From positions 310,001 through 374,000 of the forward strand of contig BROI01000024.1 of assembly GCA_027923505.1 (NCBI GenBank): a stretch of 64,000 bases of DNA, given 5' to 3'. A program made the translations under genes and the position numbers. Of the stretch, positions 41,171 through 53,897 are shown piece by piece. The stretch's first letter is position 1; each line of letters starts with the position of its first letter. Under the pieces are notes generated by a model. The model made no database searches. It saw nothing but the letters and a program-made list of their open reading frames with translations, and had not been told where the DNA came from. The stretch comes from Mayamaea pseudoterrestris. Taxonomy: Eukaryota.

Positions 41171-42388
41171 TCAAAACCCAGGTGGCGTGCCGGCAGAGTA
41201 TTTGACAATGCCCAAAACTTTATATCGTTCACCCATTTCTTCCGGCGACGCCAACCGCACCATGGCTTGATACAAGTCTTCGGCTTCATCTTCCGTCGTC
41301 TTGTCATCCTCGATAGCATTCAAAACTCGCTCTTGCATACCCATGGCCATGAGAAAGTCACCCTGCGTCACTGGCCCGTACGCGCGAACTGTATTTTGGT
41401 CATCACCTGCTGTTTCGCTCGTCGTCACTGTTCCATTCCTTTGTTTCCTGCTATTATTCACGGCATGTTTCAAAGCAGCAAAATCAACGTCAGCGGTTAT
41501 ATCTACCAGTCCTGGTTGCGACAAGAAACCAAGCTGCTCGTGTCGTGAAAACGCGCGCAACGAGTCGGCGCTTCCAGATTGTCCATAGTCTATGAACAAA
41601 GCCGCTCCTCCCCCCGCACTCTGCTCCAAATATCGTGACAAGTCTTGCACCATGAGAATGCCTTCCGGATTGACTTCCATGACGCTGCCAACAGGAATGT
41701 TTTCCGAGTCATTGGTTAAATATCCATGTTCGTCCACGTCCAGCAAGGTTTGTAAAGCTGGGGTCACTTCGGGCGCCAGTACAAGCACCAAGCGAGGCTT
41801 TGGCTCGGTCACAGCTTGGTTGGATGTCGCATTCTTGTCAATTACACTAGTGGATGAGGCGTTTAAATATATTGCAACGTCTTGATCCTGGTCGTCACTA
41901 GGCAAACTGACAAGACGCTCCCTCCAGTAGCCTTCCGGAGTCTTTTCAAAGCTATAGACGGGCAACGCATCCAGGAATTCTTGTCCAATGCAGTAGGTTG
42001 CCATTGGCCCATCTTTCGAAACGTCATAATGTTTCGCCATCCATTGTTCAAACGCAGTGAAAGTGGCATGCCAGTGCACCGAGATTGTGTGCGTTGGCGT
42101 TGGAGTTGAATCAGCATCGTTCCCAACAACAACAGATGCCACACGCTCGCCACTTGCATCATCATCATTGTCATGAAACTCGTACACTTTTCCACTTTCC
42201 TCACCAAGCTCCTGTAGACGCTCCTTTTGCATGTTCCGCAGCCTTTGGCTCGACGTTTCCACAAAGTGAATGTGTTTGCAGCCAGCGTCAAAGTCTGGAA
42301 CGGCCGACTGAAATCGCACCAAATCGCGCATCAAGGTTCCCTTGCCGGGTCCGCACTCGAGCCACTGCCAGGCAAGTATATTATTATG

Positions 42389-42430
<42 letters not shown>

Positions 42431-43384
42431 TGTAGTGCCGTCAATATTGTCATGATGCGCCGCAGTCGCTGTCGCCGTCGCCGCTGACCTTGCCTGCGCC
42501 TGCAAATGCTGCGTCGCGAACCAAACGCCCAAGCATTCGCCAAAGACTTGCGACACTTCCGGGGCCGTGACAAAGTCGCCGCCAATAATGGTAATGGCGT
42601 CAGTGGCAGAAACTGCTGCTGTAGCATTCTTGTCGAGTGTATCATGATTGTCGTAATCATCATTGTCACTATCAAAGTCTTCTCTGTCAGCTGCTGCAAA
42701 ATGACTCGTGGCGTTGATATAGTAGCCATGCTCGGGATGCGTCAAGCACAGTCGCATATAGTCGGCCGTACTCATGGGCCTGCCTAAAACGCTGAGCAGC
42801 GGCAGTATCACGTGCGTCCAGAGCGGCGTGGGCGGTTCATACGACGCTGCGACAAGACTCGACGACAATGACAATGCTGATCCGCCATGAGTATGCGGGT
42901 CATACAAGTCAATCGCATGTGATGACGCCATGAACACGGAGGACGAATTGTTAGTACTCGTCGCGCTTGTCCATGCGTGTCGCGAAAGGTTGGTCCGGGG
43001 CAGCAGCAGCAGAGGATGAAGTTGCTGTTTCAATGGCTGCAATCGAGAAGGAGTAGCAGTTACGAATTCCTTGTTTGTATTAGTTTCGTCAGTCTTACTT
43101 TCACTCGTTTCATGCTTGCCACTCTCATGGTTGGCTCGCTTTTGACGCGACGTTGTTCCAAAGAAATGATGGTGAAAAAATGACGAAAGAAATGGCGGCG
43201 CAGCAGGTATTCGACGTCGTTGCTCCTGCCAGAAGCTGCTCCTTTTATGAAGCAGATTCAGTCGATTCATTCTATACATTGAAACTGTCTCTGTGTAGGA
43301 ACTCCTCGCGCAAGGATTGCCATGGTTGTCATGAGATGAACGAGTGTCGTACCGGTTTGGGTAACCGGTACGACGTAAGGTCAT
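41171..43384 (-). CDS. NDUFAF7: NDUFAF7/MidA SAM-dependent arginine methyltransferase (start may be 43279)
   Basis: MSTADYMRLCLTHPEHGYY, GDFVTAPEVSQVFGE, LECGPGKGTLM, QEFLDALP, IDYG, PGLVDITADVDF, MGERYKV motifs. Confidence 0.92.
42390..42428. repeat. (CTG)13 microsatellite encoding poly-Ser in NDUFAF7
   Basis: 13 uninterrupted CTG units. Confidence 0.9.
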
Positions 43385-43423
43385 TTTTGGGTCACGCGAG
43401 TTGTTGCTCAACAAGAGAAGTCG

Positions 43424-43541
43424 CGGGTTTCCCCGTCTTAGCCACTACTTCCAGCTACAGGGTTTTAAGGATGGCACACAGCTGGGTGGAGAGTAAGGCA
43501 TTTTACTTAATTTGCCTCCTCGCCGCCCCAAGGCGTGCGCC
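43424..43541 (-). repeat. Split direct repeat B2 (element 3' terminus)
   Basis: CGGGTTTCCCCG...GGCGTGCGCC, appears identical to 43852-43969. Confidence 0.95.
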
Positions 43542-43559: not shown

Positions 43560-43851
43560 TGCACTTAATTCTATCTTCTTTCCTTGTCAAAAGCAGCACT
43601 CGAGGCAGCTCTCTAAAGGAATCAAAGGACAAGCGACTGTAGCAACAACAACAGGAGGGGCTGCTTGGAAGGAGCTTGCCTTCTTCAAAAGAATGGCTCC
43701 GAGCAGGGCGAAGGAGGATCAAAGGATGCTCTTCAACACGCTCAGGGGCTTATCTGCAACCACGCAGCTTTCAAAGCCGTATGGTGTCGCCACGCTGGCG
43801 ACTGTAACATATAGTGTAGTCTTTTCCTTCCGCTTTCAGCTGCGGCAAAGA
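43560..43851 (-). repeat. Split direct repeat A2
   Basis: TGCACTTAATT...GCGGCAAAGA, appears identical to 50200-50491. Confidence 0.95.
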
Positions 43852-43969
43852 CGGGTTTCCCCGTCTTAGCCACTACTTCCAGCTACAGGGTTTTAAGGAT
43901 GGCACACAGCTGGGTGGAGAGTAAGGCATTTTACTTAATTTGCCTCCTCGCCGCCCCAAGGCGTGCGCC
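43852..43969 (-). repeat. Split direct repeat B1
   Basis: Directly abuts A2; appears identical to B2. Confidence 0.95.
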
Positions 43970-44055: not shown

Positions 44056-45204
44056 TTAGATGGGCTGCTGCGGGACAAAGGTGCCAGGGACCAGATTGTA
44101 GGTGCCACCTTGGACCATGCGAGCAGCGTAGCCGGTGGTGTGAGCAGCAGTGCCATGCAGGTAGCGTAGCATTGCGTCAGAACGCCAGCGGCCCATCAAT
44201 TTTATAATATTGTCATCGCAGCCGCCATTGAGGAGAGCCATAGCACCACCAGCGCGCAGGGAGCGAGCCTCAATGTCGGAGGGGTCTAAGCCCAGGGTAG
44301 GACCAAGTGCAATGACAGCATTGCGAAGGGTGCGCGTAATCTCCCCATTCTTGACGCCAAGAGGACGATTAGCACACCAGTAGGTTGCAAGCGGTGTGTG
44401 GGCAGTAGCACCATGCTCACGCAAATAAAGAATGCGCCGAGCAGCAGCAAGCACCGGACAGCAATGGAACAAGCCAGTGCGGCCTTGGCTAATGACTTCA
44501 CCGCGGACACCATTTTTCTGATTATCAAATGTGAACGACACCTGGGAAGCCGCCAACAAATCTGCAGCTGGTGCAGCAAAGAGATCAAGACGGCGGGAAC
44601 CCAGACAGAGTTGGACTGCACCTAGGCGTAGTGGTGGGGTGTTGCCACCGTGGGTGCCAGTGTACTCACCAGGGCGCATCAAGAAGAAGAAACCCAGGGT
44701 GATGATGTCGGCAAAGGTTTGCAGGGCAGGTGAGCCTGGTCCAGAATAGGCTTGGGCCAGGATGTGTTGCACAATGGTGACCGGAATTGGTTTGACGCGA
44801 GTAGGGGCTGGATCTTCGCGGTGCCAGCATTTAAATTGTTGCTGCAGCCGGTAGTCAATTTTGCCACAGGAATCTTGTCGAATGTCGTGGGACCCCATGC
44901 GGGCGAACGTCTGGCCCACCGCACGGATGGCGTCCGCCACTGTTGCAGCGCGGACGGGTTGACCGCTGGCGGAGAGTCGGCCATCGCGGTAACGGGTTGC
45001 CCAGACTTGGAGAGTTGGGACTGGGTCATCCAAGGTTTTGAGGAAAGGGTCGAGATGGTGTTCAAGACAGAAGTCACACCATGAGGCCCAATGCTTGTCC
45101 GCGGAGGCGGCTCTTGAAGGAACGACTCCGGCACGGATCTGGTCTTGGACAGTGCGGTAATCATGGTAGAAAGCATCTCGGGTCGTGGTTGGTACAGTTG
45201 CCAA
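44056..45204 (-). CDS. Tyrosine recombinase (ORF3) of the retrotransposon; overlaps the pol 3' end in the -1 frame
   Basis: WASWCDFC core-binding region, FFFLMRPGEY (Arg I), QKNG (Lys), ARSLRAGGA (Arg II), MGRWRSDAMLRYLH (Trp, catalytic Tyr). Begins with TTG; the true start is unknown. Confidence 0.93.
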   Translation of the reverse strand: MATVPTTTRDAFYHDYRTVQDQIRAGVVPSRAASADKHWASWCDFCLEHHLDPFLKTLDDPVPTLQVWATRYRDGRLSASGQPVRAATVADAIRAVGQTFARMGSHDIRQDSCGKIDYRLQQQFKCWHREDPAPTRVKPIPVTIVQHILAQAYSGPGSPALQTFADIITLGFFFLMRPGEYTGTHGGNTPPLRLGAVQLCLGSRRLDLFAAPAADLLAASQVSFTFDNQKNGVRGEVISQGRTGLFHCCPVLAAARRILYLREHGATAHTPLATYWCANRPLGVKNGEITRTLRNAVIALGPTLGLDPSDIEARSLRAGGAMALLNGGCDDNIIKLMGRWRSDAMLRYLHGTAAHTTGYAARMVQGGTYNLVPGTFVPQQPI

Positions 45205-48038
45205 GGTAGAGGCTGTGGGTAATGAGTGTTAAAGTAGGTGAGTAATTCAGAGTCAGACAAATGCCACAAACGGGAGGCCTTGTCCGCCATTTCATTCACT
45301 GGACCAGGAATGTAATCATGGAGTGGAACATAGCGATGTGTGCGTTGATGCAAGGACTGGCATCTGAGTAGGTATGCTGCTGGGCCAGTGGAGGTAGTGG
45401 AGCCCTTGCGCTGCCAAGCGACAGCTGGAGTGTTGTCGTGGGAGGTGTGAATGGTGCGCTCACGGATGTCAAAATTGTGTGCCAAAACATCATGATGGAG
45501 AACCGTCCCAAACAATTCCAAATCACTATTGGTAATAGTGCCATGTGGGTTGTCAAAACTCACCAAGTCCGCCTCAATGTGAGGAGGGAACCTGGCACGC
45601 CACAAGATTGGTTGTAGGGCATTGGTGGGCATGGAGACAAAGGCCACGGCCCCAGCGCCACGACCAGATGCATCAGTAGTGCCCACAATAGCCGGGTCAT
45701 CAGGAATCAATTCAGCAATGCGTGTTGGTCGTGTCTCTAGACCAGCCGCAATCCATCGAAAATCTTCCAGAAAGTCATGCACTGCCTGGGTCAACCGCAA
45801 ACGACCAGAGTGACCATCAGGATGGCGAAAGGCCTCTTGCAAGGAACTGAACAGACCACGGCTGCCAGGAATGGCCAAGGACATGGAGCGCAGCTCGCCC
45901 AAGAACTTGTGCCACTGCTTGGTGGCAATGCGGCGCCGAGTAGGAGGGATACTAGCTAGGATCTCACGTAGGCGTTCCAGGCGATGGGCTGGCAATGCAA
46001 CAGTCATGGCAACGGTATCAACCAACCAACCCAGGACTTGCTTGCGAGTGGTCCAAGCACCATCTCCTTTGAGTAACTTCTTGACAGACACTGGTTCTTG
46101 ACGAGCAGGTAAGTCAGTGGGCTCCAGTGGGCGTAGAACTTGGTCAAATGTGTGCAGGAGAACACGTTGCAACCTTAGCAGCCGATCCGGATTGCCTTGG
46201 GCTAAAGCAATCAAGTCATCCACATACAAGTCATTGTATGCAACAGGACGCTGGAGGATATCAGAGCGCTGGCGTGGAGCAGGAAGAGGCGCCACACTAG
46301 GATCATTGATGGGCGTATCCTCCACAGTCACAACAGGTGGGACAGAGCCGTGTGCGGGCACACTTCCAGGCAGGGGTGTTGGAGTGGTGGTAGCTGGTAA
46401 GGTTTGAGCTTGTAACTCCAGACGGTGAGGCGGTGGTGACTTGGCACCACACTGGAAGGCTTGATTGGCTAAGTCACAAATGGTCTCTGTCACTGCACAG
46501 AAATAGGGTGGAGAATGAATCCAACCCATAGGCAGTGTGAGTGGAAAAGCAATCAGAGGCTCCTCACCAGCACACTGAGGAAACAAGACACCAAGCTTGG
46601 GGATATCTCCAGGCAGCAAACGCACACGGTAAAATCCATCAGCAATATCCAACTTGGACATGTGGACGGGCCCATAGCGGGGGTTGGCTCGAGCAATGCG
46701 TTGCAGCAAACGATAAAAAGTGCGGCCAAACTGCATGGACTCCAGTGGCGCAACTGCAGCAGTGTCATCATTGACCCCAAAGTAGCTGTAGTCAGAGATG
46801 GTCCGAGGTCGCCGGTCTCGCTGAGGCACAACACCAAGAGGACTGAGTCGGAGTTGTTCCATTCCAAGGACCTGTGAGGCTGGTAGGACGGTCCAGTGGC
46901 CTTTCTTGATCATGTCAGTGAACTCCTCCCGCAGAAAAGCAGTGTGTTCAAAGGCAGACTTGTGAGGGCCCCTCTTGAGCGCCATTTGCTTTTGTGCTAG
47001 TGTCCAAGGCTTTTTCTGCATAATGGCTGGTGCGCCACGTGCATCCAATTGGTGTAGCAAATGTGCAGCTGGATGATCCAGATCCTTGACGCTGGGCTGT
47101 AAGTCAGAGGCGCCGCGGCTGGCCTCCACAAAAGCACGCCAATCCGGAGACAAAGCAAGACGTGCAGATGCCTCCTGAACCAGCTGCCCCAATTCATCAT
47201 CAAGTAGTTGCAAGGATGAGGTGTTGGTGTGTGTAGGCAACTTGGATGTAGAAAGACTGCCAGGCAAAGTGTAAGGAGGTGCAGATGCCTTTGGGGAGAC
47301 CAGGTCATGTGCCTTTGGCTGAGAGGCCCAGTGTGGAGCCCAGCCAGTTGCCATGGCAGGTAACTGTGCAGGTGCAGCAGTGGCTTCCATTGAGAGTGGA
47401 GCAGCCTTGCTGAATGCCAAGTGTGGTGCCATGGTAGGAGCAGCCTTGCTGGCAACCAAGTGTGGAGCCATGGCTTGGTGTGACACCACAACTGGGGAGG
47501 CGCCAGTACATGGGACTGGAGCAGCCACTGGAGAGGCATCAGCGGTGTGAAGGCCTGGAGAAGCCACATCCTCAGGTGCGACGGCGACAGACGATTCAAG
47601 GGGGCCTGGAGAAGCCACAGCCTGGTGTGTAGGTGTGACGGCAACAGATGGATTGGTGCTAGGAGCCAAGGTTGGACGACACTCAGGGTGGACAACTTGA
47701 CGACTTGCTTGGAGTTGACTTGCTTGGACTTGGACCAGGGACGCAGTGGGACCGGGGACAGAGGCCAATTTGATTACATTCCTGGCAGCAGTAGGCAAGA
47801 GACGTGGTGTGGGCAGTAACAATGGTTCTTTCTGCACAACATGCACGCCAGCTTGCTTACCAAGTTCAGGAGATAGGACAGGTGACACAGTAGATTTAAA
47901 ACGTTTACTACTGGGCGACTTAATTACTGGAACTACTTCTTCATTTTCGACAACTGGACCTGCGACTCTGGATGGTGGAACAGCAGAGGTTGCAGGCGTC
48001 AGCGGATTATAACATATAGGGATCCGCCCGCCGGACCG
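44679..48038 (-). CDS. Reverse transcriptase + RNase H (ORF2/pol), open from the codon right after the gag UGA
   Basis: LSPLGVVPQ...RTISDYS, KLDIADGFYRV, LPMGWIHSPPYF, YVDD; RNase H TDAS, NSDLEL, HDN, ADKASR. The 50 codons 48038-47889 contain no stop and no ATG. Confidence 0.95.
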   Translation of the reverse strand, partial: RSGGRIPICYNPLTPATSAVPPSRVAGPVVENEEVVPVIKSPSSKRFKSTVSPVLSPELGKQAGVHVVQKEPLLLPTPRLLPTAARNVIKLASVPGPTASLVQVQASQLQASRQVVHPECRPTLAPSTNPSVAVTPTHQAVASPGPLESSVAVAPEDVASPGLHTADASPVAAPVPCTGASPVVVSHQAMAPHLVASKAAPTMAPHLAFSKAAPLSMEATAAPAQLPAMATGWAPHWASQPKAHDLVSPKASAPPYTLPGSLSTSKLPTHTNTSSLQLLDDELGQLVQEASARLALSPDWRAFVEASRGASDLQPSVKDLDHPAAHLLHQLDARGAPAIMQKKPWTLAQKQMALKRGPHKSAFEHTAFLREEFTDMIKKGHWTVLPASQVLGMEQLRLSPLGVVPQRDRRPRTISDYSYFGVNDDTAAVAPLESMQFGRTFYRLLQRIARANPRYGPVHMSKLDIADGFYRVRLLPGDIPKLGVLFPQCAGEEPLIAFPLTLPMGWIHSPPYFCAVTETICDLANQAFQCGAKSPPPHRLELQAQTLPATTTPTPLPGSVPAHGSVPPVVTVEDTPINDPSVAPLPAPRQRSDILQRPVAYNDLYVDDLIALAQGNPDRLLRLQRVLLHTFDQVLRPLEPTDLPARQEPVSVKKLLKGDGAWTTRKQVLGWLVDTVAMTVALPAHRLERLREILASIPPTRRRIATKQWHKFLGELRSMSLAIPGSRGLFSSLQEAFRHPDGHSGRLRLTQAVHDFLEDFRWIAAGLETRPTRIAELIPDDPAIVGTTDASGRGAGAVAFVSMPTNALQPILWRARFPPHIEADLVSFDNPHGTITNSDLELFGTVLHHDVLAHNFDIRERTIHTSHDNTPAVAWQRKGSTTSTGPAAYLLRCQSLHQRTHRYVPLHDYIPGPVNEMADKASRLWHLSDSELLTYFNTHYPQPLPWQLYQPRPEMLSTMITALSKTRSVPESFLQEPPPRTSIGPHGVTSVLNTISTLSSKPWMTQSQLSKSGQPVTAMADSPPAVNPSALQQWRTPSVRWARRSPAWGPTTFDKIPVAKLTTGCSNNLNAGTAKIQPLLASNQFRSPLCNTSWPKPILDQAHLPCKPLPTSSPWVSSS

Positions 48039-50192
48039 TCAATTGCGGGGCTCAAGATGCTCCAATGCCCAAGCCAACAAGGCATCATCAGCTGCCTGAC
48101 TATGCTTGATGTGGTCGGCTTTGCGCTTGCACAACGAGTCACATTTGCCACGCAAATGATAAGCCATGCAGGGAGCAGTAGCGAGTCCTGGGATGCTATC
48201 CTTGGTGGGCCAACTCTTGTCCTCGGGATTCTTCCTCATCAAGCGGAGTTGGCGCTTGTCCTTCTGGAAGGCTTCAAAGGCTGGGTTGTAATCCAGGTTG
48301 ATGACCACCGCATTCGCCTTGGTAGAAGGACTGTTGCCGCTTGCACCCGTCAAAGTAGAAGCCGCGGTGGTATGAGTGCCTTTGCTGTTGACACTGCTAC
48401 CAACCTTGATGGATCCTGGGATGTCGGCTGCCTTGTTGAGTTGCTTGCTTAGTTGAGTGCAATACTTGGCAGGCAAAGGAGGCAGGACAGAGAGATTGCC
48501 AATTTCCAAGTCCTCCATGACACTGGCCAGATCCGGGACGGCCTTGTAGGTGGGAGAAGTCTCCATAGTCTTGAACCAACGGTGGAAGCGGACTTGGACT
48601 GCTCGCAGCATGAGGGAGGGTCCCTGCTCACCAAGGCTAGCCAAGGCGTGCTGATAGGTAGGAATGTTGGCTTCAAATGTCTTGGTCCAATGCTCCAACG
48701 TGCAGACAAGCTCATGATCTTCCCCAAAGTACTGTGTGAGGAGGATTAGGTAGGCCCGGCACATGCGTGCTGCCAGGAAGTAGTTGGTTGGCAGCACCAC
48801 TTTGGAAGTAACAGCCTGGAGTTCCTTAGTATCTTGGTAGGTGATTGCATGACCGCCACTTAGGATGTCGTCATGCGCCTGCGCCGCTTGGAGGACTTCA
48901 GCTGACATGTTTGAGCCTTGGAGAACAGTCAGATTGGGTGGTACCATCATGAAGACATTGATGCCTCCACTAAAATCATCCTTGTCGGCGCCTGCAAAGT
49001 CTCCATCTTGAAGCCGTCGGCTAATGTGCGGCGTCACAATAGGAGCATAGTCTTGGTTACCCGCTGCCACCGCACCCTCAACTAGATGGTCTTGCACTAC
49101 CTTGCGCTTGTCCTTGTCAGCCGTGGCGGCGAGGAGGTGGTGCAGTTCGGGATAGCCACTTGGTGAAGCAATGCGTAGCATGATGCTAGTGCGCCGTAAT
49201 TGTGTCGCAGTTAAAATGTCGGAGACTTTCTTGGGTGCCTTGGCTGCGCCCGGCGCGAGCCTCTTCACGGGCTCGGCCTCGGCTGCATCCTTAGCTTGGC
49301 GCTCCAAAAGGTTGACCAAAGCACTTTGATTTGGATCGGGTTGGGCGAACAAGTCCGGCAAGAGGCGCCGCAAGTTGGTCGAGGTGAACCGGGCCACATC
49401 GGCATCCCAGCTCGGAGCGGCTCGTGCAATTCCTGGAATAGTAGGCACTCCATCAGCGGCTCGGCAAGTAACCAATAGCTTTAGCCAAGTGCAAAGGTTG
49501 GTCAAGACATGTTCCAGCCCCGCATCAATAATAGCCGGCGCCAAACGGTCGAAGAATTCGCGCCGCGTAAAACCCTGCCCAATCACCAGCGGTGCGAACC
49601 GCACGGGCAAGGCCTGAACCATCCGCGCACGACCTTGGACAATGGTCGCATCGTCTTCGTCAACCGGCTGCAATGGAGGCAAATACTCAGTGCCAGCAGG
49701 CAAGCCTTGCAATCGCTCCATTGTTTGTGCCAATGTTGCTGGCACATTTGTGAAGTGCCCGTTCAATGGACTGAGATGAAAATCTGCCACCGTCAGTTCG
49801 ACGAGGCCTGCCGTGCCTTGGAAAACCTCCGTACCAAAACCGATGACTCGATTGTCCCAGCGGTTGGTGCGACCTGCAACGGCAAGGTACCGCTGGGCCC
49901 CGACAATGGCGTGAATGCAACCATGCATAGGCTGGTCGGCCTCGACCAAGGCAGCAACAAGAATGGGAGCGGTCTCCAAGGGCGTGTCGACCAAACCTTT
50001 AAAGCAATCAGCTGCAGTTAAAGGAGGATCGGCAGTGCGAGTGAGACCGTTCAAACCATTGTATTCACCGTTCAAAGGATCATTACTTGCCTGACTGTAA
50101 CGGGCAAGGAAGGTGACCGTAGGGAGAGTGGCCCCGGCAAAAGGAATGGCGGCGGCTGCGGCAGCGGCGTCGGCTCCATTGACGGCGGCCAT
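48039..50192 (-). CDS. Gag-like ORF1 with C-terminal CCCH-type zinc finger
   Basis: ATG at 50192 just inside repeat A1; 717 aa; CMAYHLRGKCDSLCKRKADH near the C-terminus; position upstream of RT. Confidence 0.85.
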   Translation of the reverse strand: MAAVNGADAAAAAAAIPFAGATLPTVTFLARYSQASNDPLNGEYNGLNGLTRTADPPLTAADCFKGLVDTPLETAPILVAALVEADQPMHGCIHAIVGAQRYLAVAGRTNRWDNRVIGFGTEVFQGTAGLVELTVADFHLSPLNGHFTNVPATLAQTMERLQGLPAGTEYLPPLQPVDEDDATIVQGRARMVQALPVRFAPLVIGQGFTRREFFDRLAPAIIDAGLEHVLTNLCTWLKLLVTCRAADGVPTIPGIARAAPSWDADVARFTSTNLRRLLPDLFAQPDPNQSALVNLLERQAKDAAEAEPVKRLAPGAAKAPKKVSDILTATQLRRTSIMLRIASPSGYPELHHLLAATADKDKRKVVQDHLVEGAVAAGNQDYAPIVTPHISRRLQDGDFAGADKDDFSGGINVFMMVPPNLTVLQGSNMSAEVLQAAQAHDDILSGGHAITYQDTKELQAVTSKVVLPTNYFLAARMCRAYLILLTQYFGEDHELVCTLEHWTKTFEANIPTYQHALASLGEQGPSLMLRAVQVRFHRWFKTMETSPTYKAVPDLASVMEDLEIGNLSVLPPLPAKYCTQLSKQLNKAADIPGSIKVGSSVNSKGTHTTAASTLTGASGNSPSTKANAVVINLDYNPAFEAFQKDKRQLRLMRKNPEDKSWPTKDSIPGLATAPCMAYHLRGKCDSLCKRKADHIKHSQAADDALLAWALEHLEPRN

Positions 50193-50199
50193 GGAGGAA

Positions 50200-50491
50200 T
50201 GCACTTAATTCTATCTTCTTTCCTTGTCAAAAGCAGCACTCGAGGCAGCTCTCTAAAGGAATCAAAGGACAAGCGACTGTAGCAACAACAACAGGAGGGG
50301 CTGCTTGGAAGGAGCTTGCCTTCTTCAAAAGAATGGCTCCGAGCAGGGCGAAGGAGGATCAAAGGATGCTCTTCAACACGCTCAGGGGCTTATCTGCAAC
50401 CACGCAGCTTTCAAAGCCGTATGGTGTCGCCACGCTGGCGACTGTAACATATAGTGTAGTCTTTTCCTTCCGCTTTCAGCTGCGGCAAAGA
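50200..50491 (-). repeat. Split direct repeat A1 (element 5' terminus)
   Basis: Appears identical to 43560-43851. Confidence 0.95.
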
Positions 50492-50581
50492 GACGGAAAA
50501 GCCCGTCACCACACCGAATTCTGTAAACCAAAGTCGTCCTCTCTCTCTCGCTCCACAATCAGCAATAGTCAAGCCAACATC

Positions 50582-51691
50582 ATGGTCCGACGTTTAGCAG
50601 AGAATGGGCATGTGAAGCGCTCCATCAAAATTCCCGATGTATTTTTGGCGAATGACGCCAAGCCGATTCGAAGCATGGCTTCGCCACATACGCCGGTCCT
50701 TCCCTACTTGGCCATGGCGGAATTCGCCAAGCAGCGGGAGCATGACATTAGAGAAAGCATGGCGCAGCGTCAGGCAAAGGAAAGTGCAAAAGTTGCTGTG
50801 CAGGAGGCTACCAATGATGGAACAATGGATAAGTTGCACAATAATGAGCAGCTGGAGTCAACATGCACGACTGCTCTTTTGCAAGCACCAGAATCAATTA
50901 ATTCACAGCCGATCAATGTGAACGAATCAAATGATCATCAGGAAGAGGAACCAAATCACTTTACTGCACGGCGTTACCAATCAAAGCCAATTCCTTGGTC
51001 GGATCGCAAGGGCACGTCGGCTCCTCGACCCGACGAAACGCAGGCATTTGCAGTCCAGCAGGGTAGATACACTGCCGCAGACGAAGTTGCTTCTTTGACG
51101 ACGCCAGTGGCACCTGCTGTTACGGAAAGCCCTCTGCGACCTGCCCCTGGTGAAGTCTACATTAATGAGCAAGGTCGAAGGGTACGACTTGTGAAGAAGG
51201 TTCAACCTCGACAAACGAATGAAGCCGCCAAGACTTTTGATGGCACACCCACCAAGCCAAGAAAGGCCAAAAGCAATTCACCACCTCGGCAAGGAGGAGC
51301 TCCAAACTCTCCTAGCAAATCCAAGGGTAACAATTCGAATCCAAGTAATAGCACTGGCCCCAACAAGAAGAAGCGGCGCAAAAAGCCCCGGACATACACT
51401 GACCCCAACGTAATGGACTATCCAACCAGCATTGGCATTCCATCCGACTTGGAGGAGCGAAGCGTTCAGTCCGAGCTCAACATGTTGAGTCTGGGTGACT
51501 TGACGCCCATGGAGATGGCCAAAATGGATCCGCCACTGACGCCGCCATGCACGCCGGATAGCAAGGACTCGACAACCTCACGGACCATGTCGTTTTCGAC
51601 GCGCACGGCCGGACGAAACTTGTTTGGTAGTAGAATGGGCGAAGAAGCTGAAGCAACTGATGCTGTGAATTGTAATTGTGTCATTATGTGA
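50582..51691 (+). CDS. Low-complexity protein with C-terminal CaaX prenylation motif
   Basis: ATG in ACATCATGG context; ends NCNCVIM*. The upstream in-frame ATG at 50333 lies inside the TE repeat. Confidence 0.7.
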   Translation: MVRRLAENGHVKRSIKIPDVFLANDAKPIRSMASPHTPVLPYLAMAEFAKQREHDIRESMAQRQAKESAKVAVQEATNDGTMDKLHNNEQLESTCTTALLQAPESINSQPINVNESNDHQEEEPNHFTARRYQSKPIPWSDRKGTSAPRPDETQAFAVQQGRYTAADEVASLTTPVAPAVTESPLRPAPGEVYINEQGRRVRLVKKVQPRQTNEAAKTFDGTPTKPRKAKSNSPPRQGGAPNSPSKSKGNNSNPSNSTGPNKKKRRKKPRTYTDPNVMDYPTSIGIPSDLEERSVQSELNMLSLGDLTPMEMAKMDPPLTPPCTPDSKDSTTSRTMSFSTRTAGRNLFGSRMGEEAEATDAVNCNCVIM

Positions 51692-52040: not shown

Positions 52041-53897
52041 CTACCTCAGAAAGACTGTGTATCGCTCTTCGCCCCACAACTGCTCGTCTGTTCCAAGCCA
52101 TTGGTTGGCGTCAACAATGACTTCTGCACCATCATTCTCTTCCTGATCGAGCGGCATGTTGTATTTCGCACGATCCACGTCATCCTTGACAGCAGCAATG
52201 CAGATGTTTTCAATTTGACGACTGACCAGCCTGTGATCCAAAGGTTTCGGTAATAAATCCAAAAGTCGCTCCTTGGGCGCTGCATAATTTGGCAAACCCT
52301 TGCCTACCGTGACAATTATAGGTGGCTCGAAGGAAGGGTCAACCGGCAGTGGTATTCGATCAATGCAAACCCTACCACCTCGTCCGATTCTTGGTCTGTT
52401 ACGGAATCGCGTACTTTGCTCTAAATGCGAATCGACGTATGTTGCAACGTTGGGTACAGAGTCACACCAACTCGTCTTGTACGACTCTCTCGTCGACAAT
52501 GGCTGTAAAAAGTTGGGCGCAGGCTCTCCAAAGTTACGACCAGCAACATTTAAGGCGGCGCTTGCGTCTTGTCCTTCGACTGCATTTTGTCGATTCCCAA
52601 TCGCACCAACCCGACCTTGTCCATTACCAGATGTGTCAAACCCACGGCCTGCTGCTCCAGTACTCCTGCACCGCTTATTTTTTCGCCCGTGCAAGTCAAT
52701 CAATGCCGACTCTTCCAGCTCACGCTTGACTGCGGCTCGACTACTAGTCGTCCGTCGCGGTCGGCCCGATGTATCCACCACATTCGACAAACGCTGCCGA
52801 AACAAGTCAATCCGCAGCTGACACTGCGTCCGCTGAAGCTCCTCCCGCCGCTTGACGAGCCGCAGCACGGTCCGCAGCGATTCAAAGTCGTTGCGCAGCT
52901 GCTGCAACTTTTCAAAGGCTGCAAAATCGTTTTGCCGCTTTTTGCGGAGTCGATACTTTTCCTTTTCACGTGGACGAAAGACTAAATGGGGGTTGGTGTC
53001 TTCCGTCGATGTGACGGGCCAGTAGTTGCGCAGCAGTGGGCGCTTGAGTTTGGAGCGCTTCTGCACCCAGTAGTGGTAAACGTCCTGCATCACCGTGCGG
53101 CTCGTGACGGGCGTAGAAACAGAGGCTCCAGGTAGATGATTGCGCAAGACTGGCGTGGGAAACAGTTCCGTCAGTTGAGGTATTCTTTCGAGAATGAACT
53201 GTTCCGCCTGCTGCATAGTAACAATTGATTCAAAGCCAGTCTTCTTCTCGAGGACATCAAGCATTGTTTCGAATAGTGTGATTGATAGTTGCGGAGGTCT
53301 ATATATTGGTTCCAAGGATGCGAGAAAACTAAGGTCAGACATATCCTTGTCCTTTTGCTCGTCTTCCATCGCTCCATTGTTAGCTTCATCTACTACAAGG
53401 TCTACAGCTCCTCCAAACTTTGTGTTGCTCTCCAGCCATTCTTCATCCTCCAAATCAGCAACGTAGTCGAGTCGCGCCATGAATTCGTCCGACGTGACTC
53501 GATGGTAGCGCACGTAGGAGCGAGGCAGCTCATAGTTGGCCGGAACGTCGCGATGGTACGTGTCATTCACTGTCAAGTGCGGCACTGGAATTTCCAGTTT
53601 TGGTCGAGGAACAACCAGTGGAGTCTGGAACATAAAATAAAATGATGATGCAGACACTTAGTGAGCAATGCGAATATCCGATTGCCTGCAAGAGCTCACA
53701 ATAACATATTTTTCACTCACAGCCGTCGAAATGGCATCGCCCAGGTCTTGCACGGAAACGGTCCGAACGGAACCATTGACTTCAAAGTGCAAAATGTCGT
53801 CGACGGTGCGAACGACGGCAATCTTTTTATAGACGTTGAGAGCAGACGGTGCGACTATCGTGGCTGTCGACATGCTGCTACTCTTTGTGGCTGTCAT
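52041..53897 (-). CDS. EPC: Enhancer of polycomb-like (EPC/Epl1, NuA4 subunit); intron 53625-53699
   Basis: IPVP, YVRY, DYVADLEDEEWL, FETMLDVLEK, VYHYWVQKRSKLKRPLL, DTNPHLVFRPREKE, VKRRE, RPRIGRGGRVCIDR motifs. Confidence 0.88.

Follow-up and report, generated by a model that had tools for sequence, protein, structure and literature searches.

The junction between gag and pol

The 64,000-nt stretch of Mayamaea pseudoterrestris DNA analysed here (contig BROI01000024.1 of assembly GCA_027923505.1, positions 310,001 to 374,000 of the forward strand; hereafter the window) holds on its minus strand a single copy of a 7068-nt element (50491–43424) with split direct repeats in the arrangement A1-[gag, RT/RH, YR]-B1-A2-B2, in which the bracketed open reading frames (ORFs) code for a gag-like protein, a reverse transcriptase/RNase H (RT/RH) and a tyrosine recombinase (YR). 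Because its split repeats are 100% identical, the copy is young; the element is best taken as a young Ngaro-type tyrosine-recombinase retrotransposon of the order DIRS. The gag and pol regions are separated by one in-frame UGA, which a reading of this stretch from its letters alone (the sequence-only reading) had proposed as a candidate site of programmed stop-codon readthrough followed by a stem-loop. The features that surround this stop are listed below.

48042..50192, minus strand: ORF of the gag-like protein, 717 codons when counted from its first ATG (50192), bearing a Cys/His motif near the C-terminus
48039..48041, minus strand: gag stop UGA, the proposed readthrough site and the sole stop in 1842 codons
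48033..48038, minus strand: spacer CGGUCC from stop to hairpin, 6 nt
47995..48032, minus strand: two-part stem-loop of 38 nt, made of an outer helix GGCG/CGCC, 2 bulged nt on the 3' side, an inner helix GGCGGAU/AUCCGCU and, at the apex, a helix UAUA/UAUA
47199..48038, minus strand: post-stop linker, 280 codons, Pro/Ala/Ser-rich, open in the gag frame, its first 189 codons without ATG
44679..47198, minus strand: RT/RNase H part of pol, with a YVDD motif, ending at the stop 44679–44681

The minus strand across the junction reads ...GAG CCC CGC AAT TGA CGG TCC GGC GGG CGG ATC CCT ATA TGT TAT AAT CCG CTG ACG CCT... Translation of 50204–44679 in one frame gave 1842 positions with a single internal stop (the TGA at 48041–48039), and the same frame stays open for 1119 codons past the gag stop, carrying the YVDD (RT) and TDAS (RNase H) motifs; were the stop bypassed, the fusion would count 717+1+1119 = 1837 residues. 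In these respects the sequence-only reading described the copy correctly: the gag stop lies in the RT/RH frame, the lengths given for the Gag and for the fusion agree with the translation, the 50 codons at 48038–47889 contain neither a stop nor an ATG, and the first in-frame ATG lies 189 codons past the stop, where about 190 had been claimed. The hairpin, GGCG-G-GCGGAU...AUCCGC-UGA-CGCC at 48032–47995, likewise starts 6 nt past the stop and folds as it had been drawn.

The match of pol to RVT_1 is sub-threshold in this copy (E = 0.035) and reaches E = 6e-6 in the relative P0022; a pol profile matched HIV-1 RT with E = 0.0027, and the region bearing the TDAS motif is what we take to be the RNase H. 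Near its C-terminus the gag carries a Cys-X8-Cys-X3-Cys-X5-His motif (CMAYHLRGKCDSLCKRKADH) at 48066–48125 of the minus strand, identical in the relative from Mayamaea; this motif has a weak zf-CCCH match (E = 0.058) and is likely to be a nucleic-acid-binding knuckle. Within the linker, a 39-nt tandem duplication was observed at 47398–47473, the two copies of which are 86% identical and encode MAPHLVASKAAPT and MAPHLAFSKAAP. The first in-frame ATGs of pol fall inside this duplication, and the gene caller's pol model (P0004, 930 aa) begins at the ATG 189 codons past the stop.

A stop and a hairpin kept among the relatives

An exhaustive HMMER run through 1.84 billion representatives returned 467 relatives of gag at E<=0.001, and 316 relatives of pol were obtained at the same threshold (45–60% identity), mainly on environmental contigs of 4–7 kb. 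One gag relative from M. pseudoterrestris itself (P0002, 65% identity) ends in ...LEHLEPRS where the gag of the window ends in ...LEHLEPRN. Among the best 150 of the 467 gag relatives, the longest of which has 768 aa, no gag fused to pol was present; the alignment reached the last 22 gag residues in 127 of these 150, and all 127 terminate within 27 residues of the alignment end, 106 of them within 12. A gag search among longer proteins also revealed no fusion, which is weak evidence. Comparison of gag with a protein atlas yielded unnamed clusters only, one of which has a single Bacillariophyta record.

Metagenome contigs were scanned with a 65-sequence pol alignment, by which 540 relatives were confirmed using tblastn and 78 loci were returned. 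Walking upstream in frame from the RT match to the first stop produced 67 junctions, that of the window included, 57 of which were non-redundant; these 57 minus four misfits, that is 53 junctions with a pol identity of about 45–60%, are the base of most counts that follow. Gag and pol share one frame in 22/22 loci with a tblastn gag match upstream of pol, and a long same-frame ORF lies ahead of the stop in 53/57 non-redundant junctions. The upstream ORFs of the 53 comprised 29 that are closed and have at least 600 codons, 21 open to the contig end and three shorter ones with an extra gag stop. One misfit, L053, is decayed, with TGA and hairpin in place and the frames broken. The others, L056 (which equals L057), L061 and L064, belong to a related lineage that is 44–47% identical in RT and in which gag is undetectable; the pol ORF of this lineage (L056:4748-8179, L057, L061:202-4314, L064:76-3144) has its own ATG and a 365–621-codon N-terminal extension.

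The homologous position is a stop in all 53 junctions, namely TGA in 42, TAG in 10 and TAA in one. In a FastTree of the RT region, built from 46 of the 53 rows (in the seven left out, the first 450 residues were either short or interrupted by a stop), the type of stop has changed at least 6 times, and a stop was retained throughout. The distance from stop to RT homology ranges from 3 to 350 codons and is invariably in frame: the 39 linkers of at least 50 codons have no stop in frame 0, 187 in frame +1 and 264 in frame +2, and only two of these 39 are stop-free in either alternative frame. Openness and in-frame changes of length are the only marks of translation that the linker bears.

Two intact loci from another collection, used as a small independent check, lie on contigs binned in bacterial metagenome-assembled genomes (MAGs), evidently as carry-over of eukaryotic DNA. 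They display the same order: gags of 704 and 701 codons are followed by TGA-N6-GGCG...CGCC and share the frame of pol, and both loci have yet another inner-helix sequence. Nine short contigs with this retrotransposon (L079–L087) are filed under Lamprobacter, Marinobacter, Janthinobacterium, Nitrospira and other bacterial MAGs, and are most simply explained as algal DNA that entered these bins as contamination. Head-to-tail copies were seen in some contigs, with gag and pol twice in L007 and pol and recombinase twice in L047 and L051, at a spacing of 5.8–6.5 kb; these doublets are tandem arrays or assembled circular junctions, such as have been reported for elements of this class. A scan of a viral contig collection gave zero relatives of the element.

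Downstream of the stop, GGC occupies exactly positions +7..+9 in 48/53 junctions, compared with 1942 of 114,548 (1.7%) in-phase codons of the same loci. Since the third base of this codon is C in 49/53, the constraint acts on the RNA and not on glycine alone. A GCC further downstream pairs with this GGC, and the two enclose a second helix, an architecture that can be drawn in 51/53 junctions; the exceptions are L038, which has CGCC...GGCG, and L067, which differs. The following features characterize the structure: (i) the outer helix measures 3–4 bp, its fourth pair being G-C in 17 junctions, U-A in 8, C-G in 6, A-U in 3 and G-U in 1, (ii) the bulge is asymmetric, with 0–1 nt on the 5' side (2 in one junction) and 1–4 nt on the 3' side, (iii) the inner helix is mostly of 3–10 bp (1–2 bp in four junctions) and lineage-specific in sequence, and (iv) the complete hairpin extends over 29–104 nt. 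The conserved signal of the family is therefore the fixed 6-nt spacer together with the two-part hairpin closed by GGC...GCC. Meanwhile, the base after the stop is variable (G 21, A 15, C 10, T 7). The sequence-only reading had pointed to UGA-CGG as part of the signal; CGG follows the stop in 2/53 junctions, and this type II context, which the window itself has, was rejected as the family signal. Long hairpins (59–104 nt versus about 35 nt) were confined to one well-supported clade of the RT tree with 21 rows; these junctions (L026–L048, L052, L058, L059, L063, L072) keep the GGCG...CGCC base, followed by ACC(CC).

Several comparisons set the hairpin apart from chance. In unconstrained folds of the 96 nt past the stop, a helix opened at +6..+8 in 22/53 junctions versus 1213/10,785 phase-matched control windows (binomial p = 1.8e-8), and the junction windows had a median stability percentile of 0.205 relative to the controls (Wilcoxon p = 6e-6). 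A constrained hairpin search gave a median energy per nt of -0.372 at junctions and of -0.263 at 635 other in-phase GGC codons (Mann-Whitney p = 7.6e-12), with 18/48 junction hairpins lying under the 5% quantile of the control. When the arms of 51 junctions, among which there are 41 distinct 5' arms, were swapped, the mean duplex energy rose from -11.1 (native) to -6.4 kcal/mol and 0/20,000 permutations matched the native value; the 3' arm had been placed by an energy criterion, a bias that is addressed by the 635-GGC control.

Alignments revealed covariation as well. An unfitted MAFFT alignment of 10 relatives had 91% of its cells paired, versus 27–56% with the partner slid, and displayed compensatory changes at 5/10 pairs, with a covariation score that was reached by 0/500 shuffles. 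In a 27-sequence MAFFT alignment the fourth outer pair was C-G in 5, U-A in 5, A-U in 3 and G-C in 1, besides two wobble types; eleven of the 27 were unpaired there because their outer helix has just 3 bp. RNAalifold recovered from this alignment the outer GGC/GCC helix only, the inner helices being missed because they sit in different registers, and a MAFFT alignment of the inner hairpins alone, the ends of which were not flush, was left unused. A covariance model built from the 10 relatives of the first alignment, with the window excluded, had one match in the 64-kb window, at 47989–48041 of the minus strand, over the full model length (25.4 bits, E = 0.0029). In 534 kb of loci, all matches of this model below E = 0.01 fell at gag-pol junctions; the model finds its seed subgroup and the window and misses the other hairpin subgroups. 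A pseudoknot between the loop and the downstream 45 nt, the sole geometry tested, gained no support in 29 compact hairpins, with -7.32 kcal/mol for native versus -7.44 kcal/mol for swapped partners and 6136/10,000 permutations as good. Overall, the relatives behaved as would be expected from the sequence-only reading, in that gag/pol frame and stop are retained and the stem covaries.

Near-identical copies were sought in contigs of four public sequencing runs, of which X8 had no coverage of the junction. A second version found in X1 is 99.4% identical over 46500–49276 (18 differences, besides one nt deleted at 49248), and short contigs of two further organisms also span the junction, which is covered by runs X1, X6 and X7. 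The TGA and the hairpin are unchanged in all of these copies. For the X1 copy, the 16 differences listed comprise 11 synonymous and 5 non-synonymous ones. The gag base that this copy lacks at 49248 points to a frameshift or to an error of assembly, and a diverged X1 fragment over 48035–48073 has 5 differences. Copies as close as these are too similar to be very informative.

Probable readthrough and the competing explanations

The comparative sequence record makes it probable, in our view, that the gag stop is bypassed by programmed stop-codon readthrough to give a Gag-RT/RH fusion, because gag and pol are in one frame, the stop is kept through changes of its type, relatives that are fused or in another frame are lacking, the spacing is fixed to the single nucleotide and the helix covaries. 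Most ribosomes would terminate at the gag UGA and release the 717-aa Gag, and a minority would decode the UGA with a near-cognate tRNA and stay in frame, so as to produce a Gag-linker-RT/RNase H fusion of about 1837 aa. The stem-loop, with its first base pair exactly 6 nt past the stop, would stimulate this bypass: when the stop occupies the A site, the foot of the helix would be located at the mRNA entry channel, as it is in known stimulators of readthrough and of -1 frameshifting. The elements encode no protease, and the fusion may serve to bring RT into Gag particles. Hence, the proposal of the sequence-only reading that readthrough with a 3' stem-loop yields such a fusion has strong comparative support, and only its UGA-CGG context proved not to be family-wide. 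We also favor, with more reserve, a wider proposition, namely that a large and old Ngaro-type clade in diatoms and related protists sets its ratio of Gag to Gag-RT by readthrough via a stimulator that would be new, a stop-N6-GGC...GCC two-part stem-loop with an inner helix that is free to change and a length of about 100 nt in one clade.

A number of observations weigh against readthrough. The isolated 38-mer hairpin of the window folds at -14.1 kcal/mol and just marginally beats its shuffles (z = -1.84, with 10/200 shuffles folding equally well); the 111-nt context of the junction is unremarkable in the same comparison (z = -0.44), and an unconstrained fold of the 96 nt past the stop picks a different pairing. 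On its own, this copy barely rises above chance and proves nothing, and the case beyond chance depends on the relatives. These relatives are environmental contigs, which shared descent makes less than fully independent. Of the short contexts known to be leaky, none is kept, C following the stop in just 10/53 junctions. The linker holds four of the five non-synonymous differences of the X1 copy and shows no third-position excess (21/15/15, from three usable pairs of close relatives), an in-frame ATG before the RT homology is carried by 30/53 junctions, which leaves room for separate initiation, and, according to the available sections of one report, the gag-UGA-pol junction of Tca2 from Candida albicans, with its predicted pseudoknot, gave no readthrough in a yeast reporter and held a minor promoter (PMC2194720).

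The main rival draws on several of these points. It holds that pol is made separately, be it from a subgenomic RNA, from an internal promoter or by translation that starts internally, and that the hairpin has another role, such as packaging, dimerisation, priming or RNA stability. The absence of codon-position bias from the linker, the ATGs in 30 junctions, that of the window being the start of the P0004 model, and the precedent of Tca2 all speak in its favor. However, separate synthesis of pol would leave the frame free, yet the frame is shared in 22/22 and 53/57 cases despite linkers of 3–350 codons; 23/53 junctions are without any ATG before the conserved region; and a hairpin distance that is constant to the single nucleotide in 48/53 is needless for a packaging or promoter element. 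Separate initiation explains neither the conservation of the frame nor the fixed spacing, and we consider it improbable.

Still less likely is a bypass at the RNA level, with the stop spliced around or edited away, or termination of the ribosomes followed by reinitiation. The recombinase ORF is also without an early ATG, so that the family does have some unusual expression step, which lends this idea some appeal. Against it, no GU donor or other conserved motif was seen upstream of the stop, where only the last gag codon is biased (GAA in 17 and GCC in 15 of 53); an AG precedes the 3' GCC in some junctions, not in all and not in the window; and the contigs of the four runs show no joint at the stop. 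As for reinitiation, an ATG directly after the stop was present in just 2/53 junctions.

Decoding of the UGA as selenocysteine, or as a sense codon reassigned by the host, is very improbable and was rejected. A stem-loop close behind a UGA does recall selenocysteine recoding elements, but TAG or TAA stands at the same place with the same hairpin in 11/53 junctions, and the presence of just one TGA in 1842 codons shows that it is not in general use as a sense codon. Moreover, neither SECIS nor any other Rfam family matched at the junction, the single match elsewhere being to an sRNA at chance level (E = 0.89). Finally, that the stop is a simple nonsense mutation or the mark of a dead copy, without function, is scarcely credible and was likewise rejected: decayed copies do exist (extra gag stops in L069, L072 and L078; the 1-nt gag deletion of X1), but the comparative data contradict it, with a stop at the homologous place in 53/53 and at none of the other approximately 700 gag codons in the 29 closed ORFs, no fused relative found and 100% identical repeats that mark a young copy.

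The remainder of the element and comparison with known systems

Downstream of pol and at either end of the element, the following features were recorded.

44056..45204, minus strand: ORF of the tyrosine recombinase, which overlaps the 3' end of pol and lies in the -1 frame with respect to it
50200..50491, minus strand: repeat A1 (5' split direct repeat), 292 nt, 100% identical to 43560–43851
43560..43851, minus strand: repeat A2, 292 nt, 100% identical to A1
43852..43969, minus strand: repeat B1, 118 nt, 100% identical to 43424–43541
43424..43541, minus strand: repeat B2, the 3' end of the element, 118 nt

Judged by its predicted fold, the third ORF is a tyrosine recombinase and not a DDE integrase. 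The sequence itself scored E = 0.17 against Pfam Phage_integrase, and a search of PDB sequences with a recombinase profile gave zero matches; an AlphaFold model (24 homologues, pLDDT 77.7) matched Cre recombinase in Foldseek with E = 2.9e-6, as one of 37 matches at E<=0.001 that include Cre, XerA/H and Tn1549 Int. Columns of invariant Arg, Arg, Trp and the Tyr region run through the 24 recombinase sequences. The -1 frame relative to pol is found in the relatives too (L001–L078), with an overlap of about 330–660 nt. In the window, the first ATG of this ORF lies near residue 100, yet its N-terminal residues are conserved. A short way downstream of the point where the ORF opens, pol has a conserved [F/Y]-P-Q, which at the DNA level is a pyrimidine run plus CAG and could represent a candidate splice acceptor; no slippery heptamer is conserved at this opening, and a recurring CCCTTTC about 180–220 nt inside the ORF encodes a conserved D-P-F. 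The recombinase may be expressed from a spliced subgenomic RNA or by frameshift.

The gap between A2 and B2 is 18 nt. The A1-[ORFs]-B1A2B2 split direct repeats are also those of the Ngaro elements of Cafeteria burkhardae, as given in the available sections of a report in eLife (PMC8547959). A methyltransferase domain, which separates Ngaro from DIRS1/PAT-like elements, had no Pfam match in the element, a weak negative since Pfam also put the real RT and YR below threshold. The ORFs that flank the element resemble host genes, with Methyltransf_28 at 41171–43414 (minus strand) and EPL1 at 52041–53657. A distance of 10 nt separates the start of the Methyltransf_28 ORF from the 3' end of the element (43424), and an unannotated plus-strand ORF of 452 codons (50333–51691) begins within repeat A1.

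Readthrough of the gag stop is textbook knowledge for gammaretroviruses and is known in a few long terminal repeat retrotransposons. The gag-pol signal of murine leukemia virus (MuLV) consists of a UAG, an 8-nt spacer and a pseudoknot. The junctions described here resemble it in having gag and pol in one frame with one stop between them, an RNA structure at a fixed short distance downstream and an expectedly low ratio of Gag-Pol to Gag; they differ in their mostly UGA stops, the 6-nt spacer, a two-part stem-loop without sign of a pseudoknot, the lack of a protease and their occurrence in a YR retrotransposon of diatom-type hosts. The signal of the family is closer to this structure-stimulated readthrough than to the short-context type. 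For alphaviruses, coltiviruses and plant viruses, Firth and colleagues are said to have described, in 2011, a UGA readthrough signal that includes an extended 3' stem-loop. As in those signals, a UGA is followed a few nt on by a stem-loop, and the window itself has UGA-CGG; unlike in those signals, neither CGG (2/53) nor C (10/53) is conserved here, whereas the GGC/GCC closure and the 6-nt spacer are. In the selenocysteine redefinition element of SEPN1, a stem-loop begins 6 nt after the UGA. The spacing from UGA to stem-loop and the promotion of stop decoding by a stem-loop are thus alike, but the TAG and TAA variants found here show that the signal is not selenocysteine-specific.

Among retrotransposons, the single in-frame TGA between gag and pol is shared with Tca2 and with Tj1, Tosmo and Tcry1 of fission yeast, for which a strictly conserved GAA-TGA-CT at the gag stop is reported in the accessible portion of a preprint (10.1101/2022.12.06.519325); a GAA precedes the stop in 17/53 junctions here. 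In contrast to our element, those are Ty1/copia and Ty3/gypsy elements, members of another order of retroelements, with protease and integrase, and a covarying hairpin is not described in the available parts of their reports. Compared by description, the Ngaro elements of C. burkhardae (PMC8547959, as far as its available sections go) have in common with the present element the split repeats, the ORF order of gag-like, RT/RNase H and YR, a size of 6–7 kb and a stramenopile host. Those sections contain nothing on how ORF2 is reached from ORF1, and the 'stop codon' that they mention concerns fragmented virophage ORFs. Neither readthrough nor a stop codon is mentioned in the available portions of the VIPER/TATE, fungal DIRS/Ngaro, DIRS1-like overview and Xenopus studies, and no description of readthrough in tyrosine-recombinase retrotransposons was found in the accessible open literature, where a passing earlier remark may exist. 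The suggestion in the sequence-only reading that readthrough is undescribed for this class fits the outcome of this search, with the same reservation as to a passing remark. The strategy is a known one, in a class and a host group for which no earlier description was found, and with a stimulatory structure of its own.

To our knowledge, almost nothing has been established on how tyrosine-recombinase retrotransposons balance the production of RT against that of Gag, and we know of no recoding signal that has been defined for diatoms. The family amounts to an unusually clean natural mutagenesis set of more than 50 diverged junctions, in which spacing and closing helix are invariant and the inner helix has been rewritten repeatedly and is still paired. 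From it, the behavior of mutants with a disrupted or restored stem, or with an altered spacer, can be predicted directly and put to the test. In practical terms, the junction offers a compact candidate readthrough cassette for diatom genetics, and the stop-N6-GGC...GCC signature can be used for annotation, as gene callers now split these elements and start pol at a downstream ATG (the 930-aa model in the window). If the proposition for the clade as a whole is true, no earlier recoding signal would have been documented for the order DIRS or for a stramenopile host, and a further non-standard step, through which the recombinase is expressed from its -1 frame, may accompany this one.

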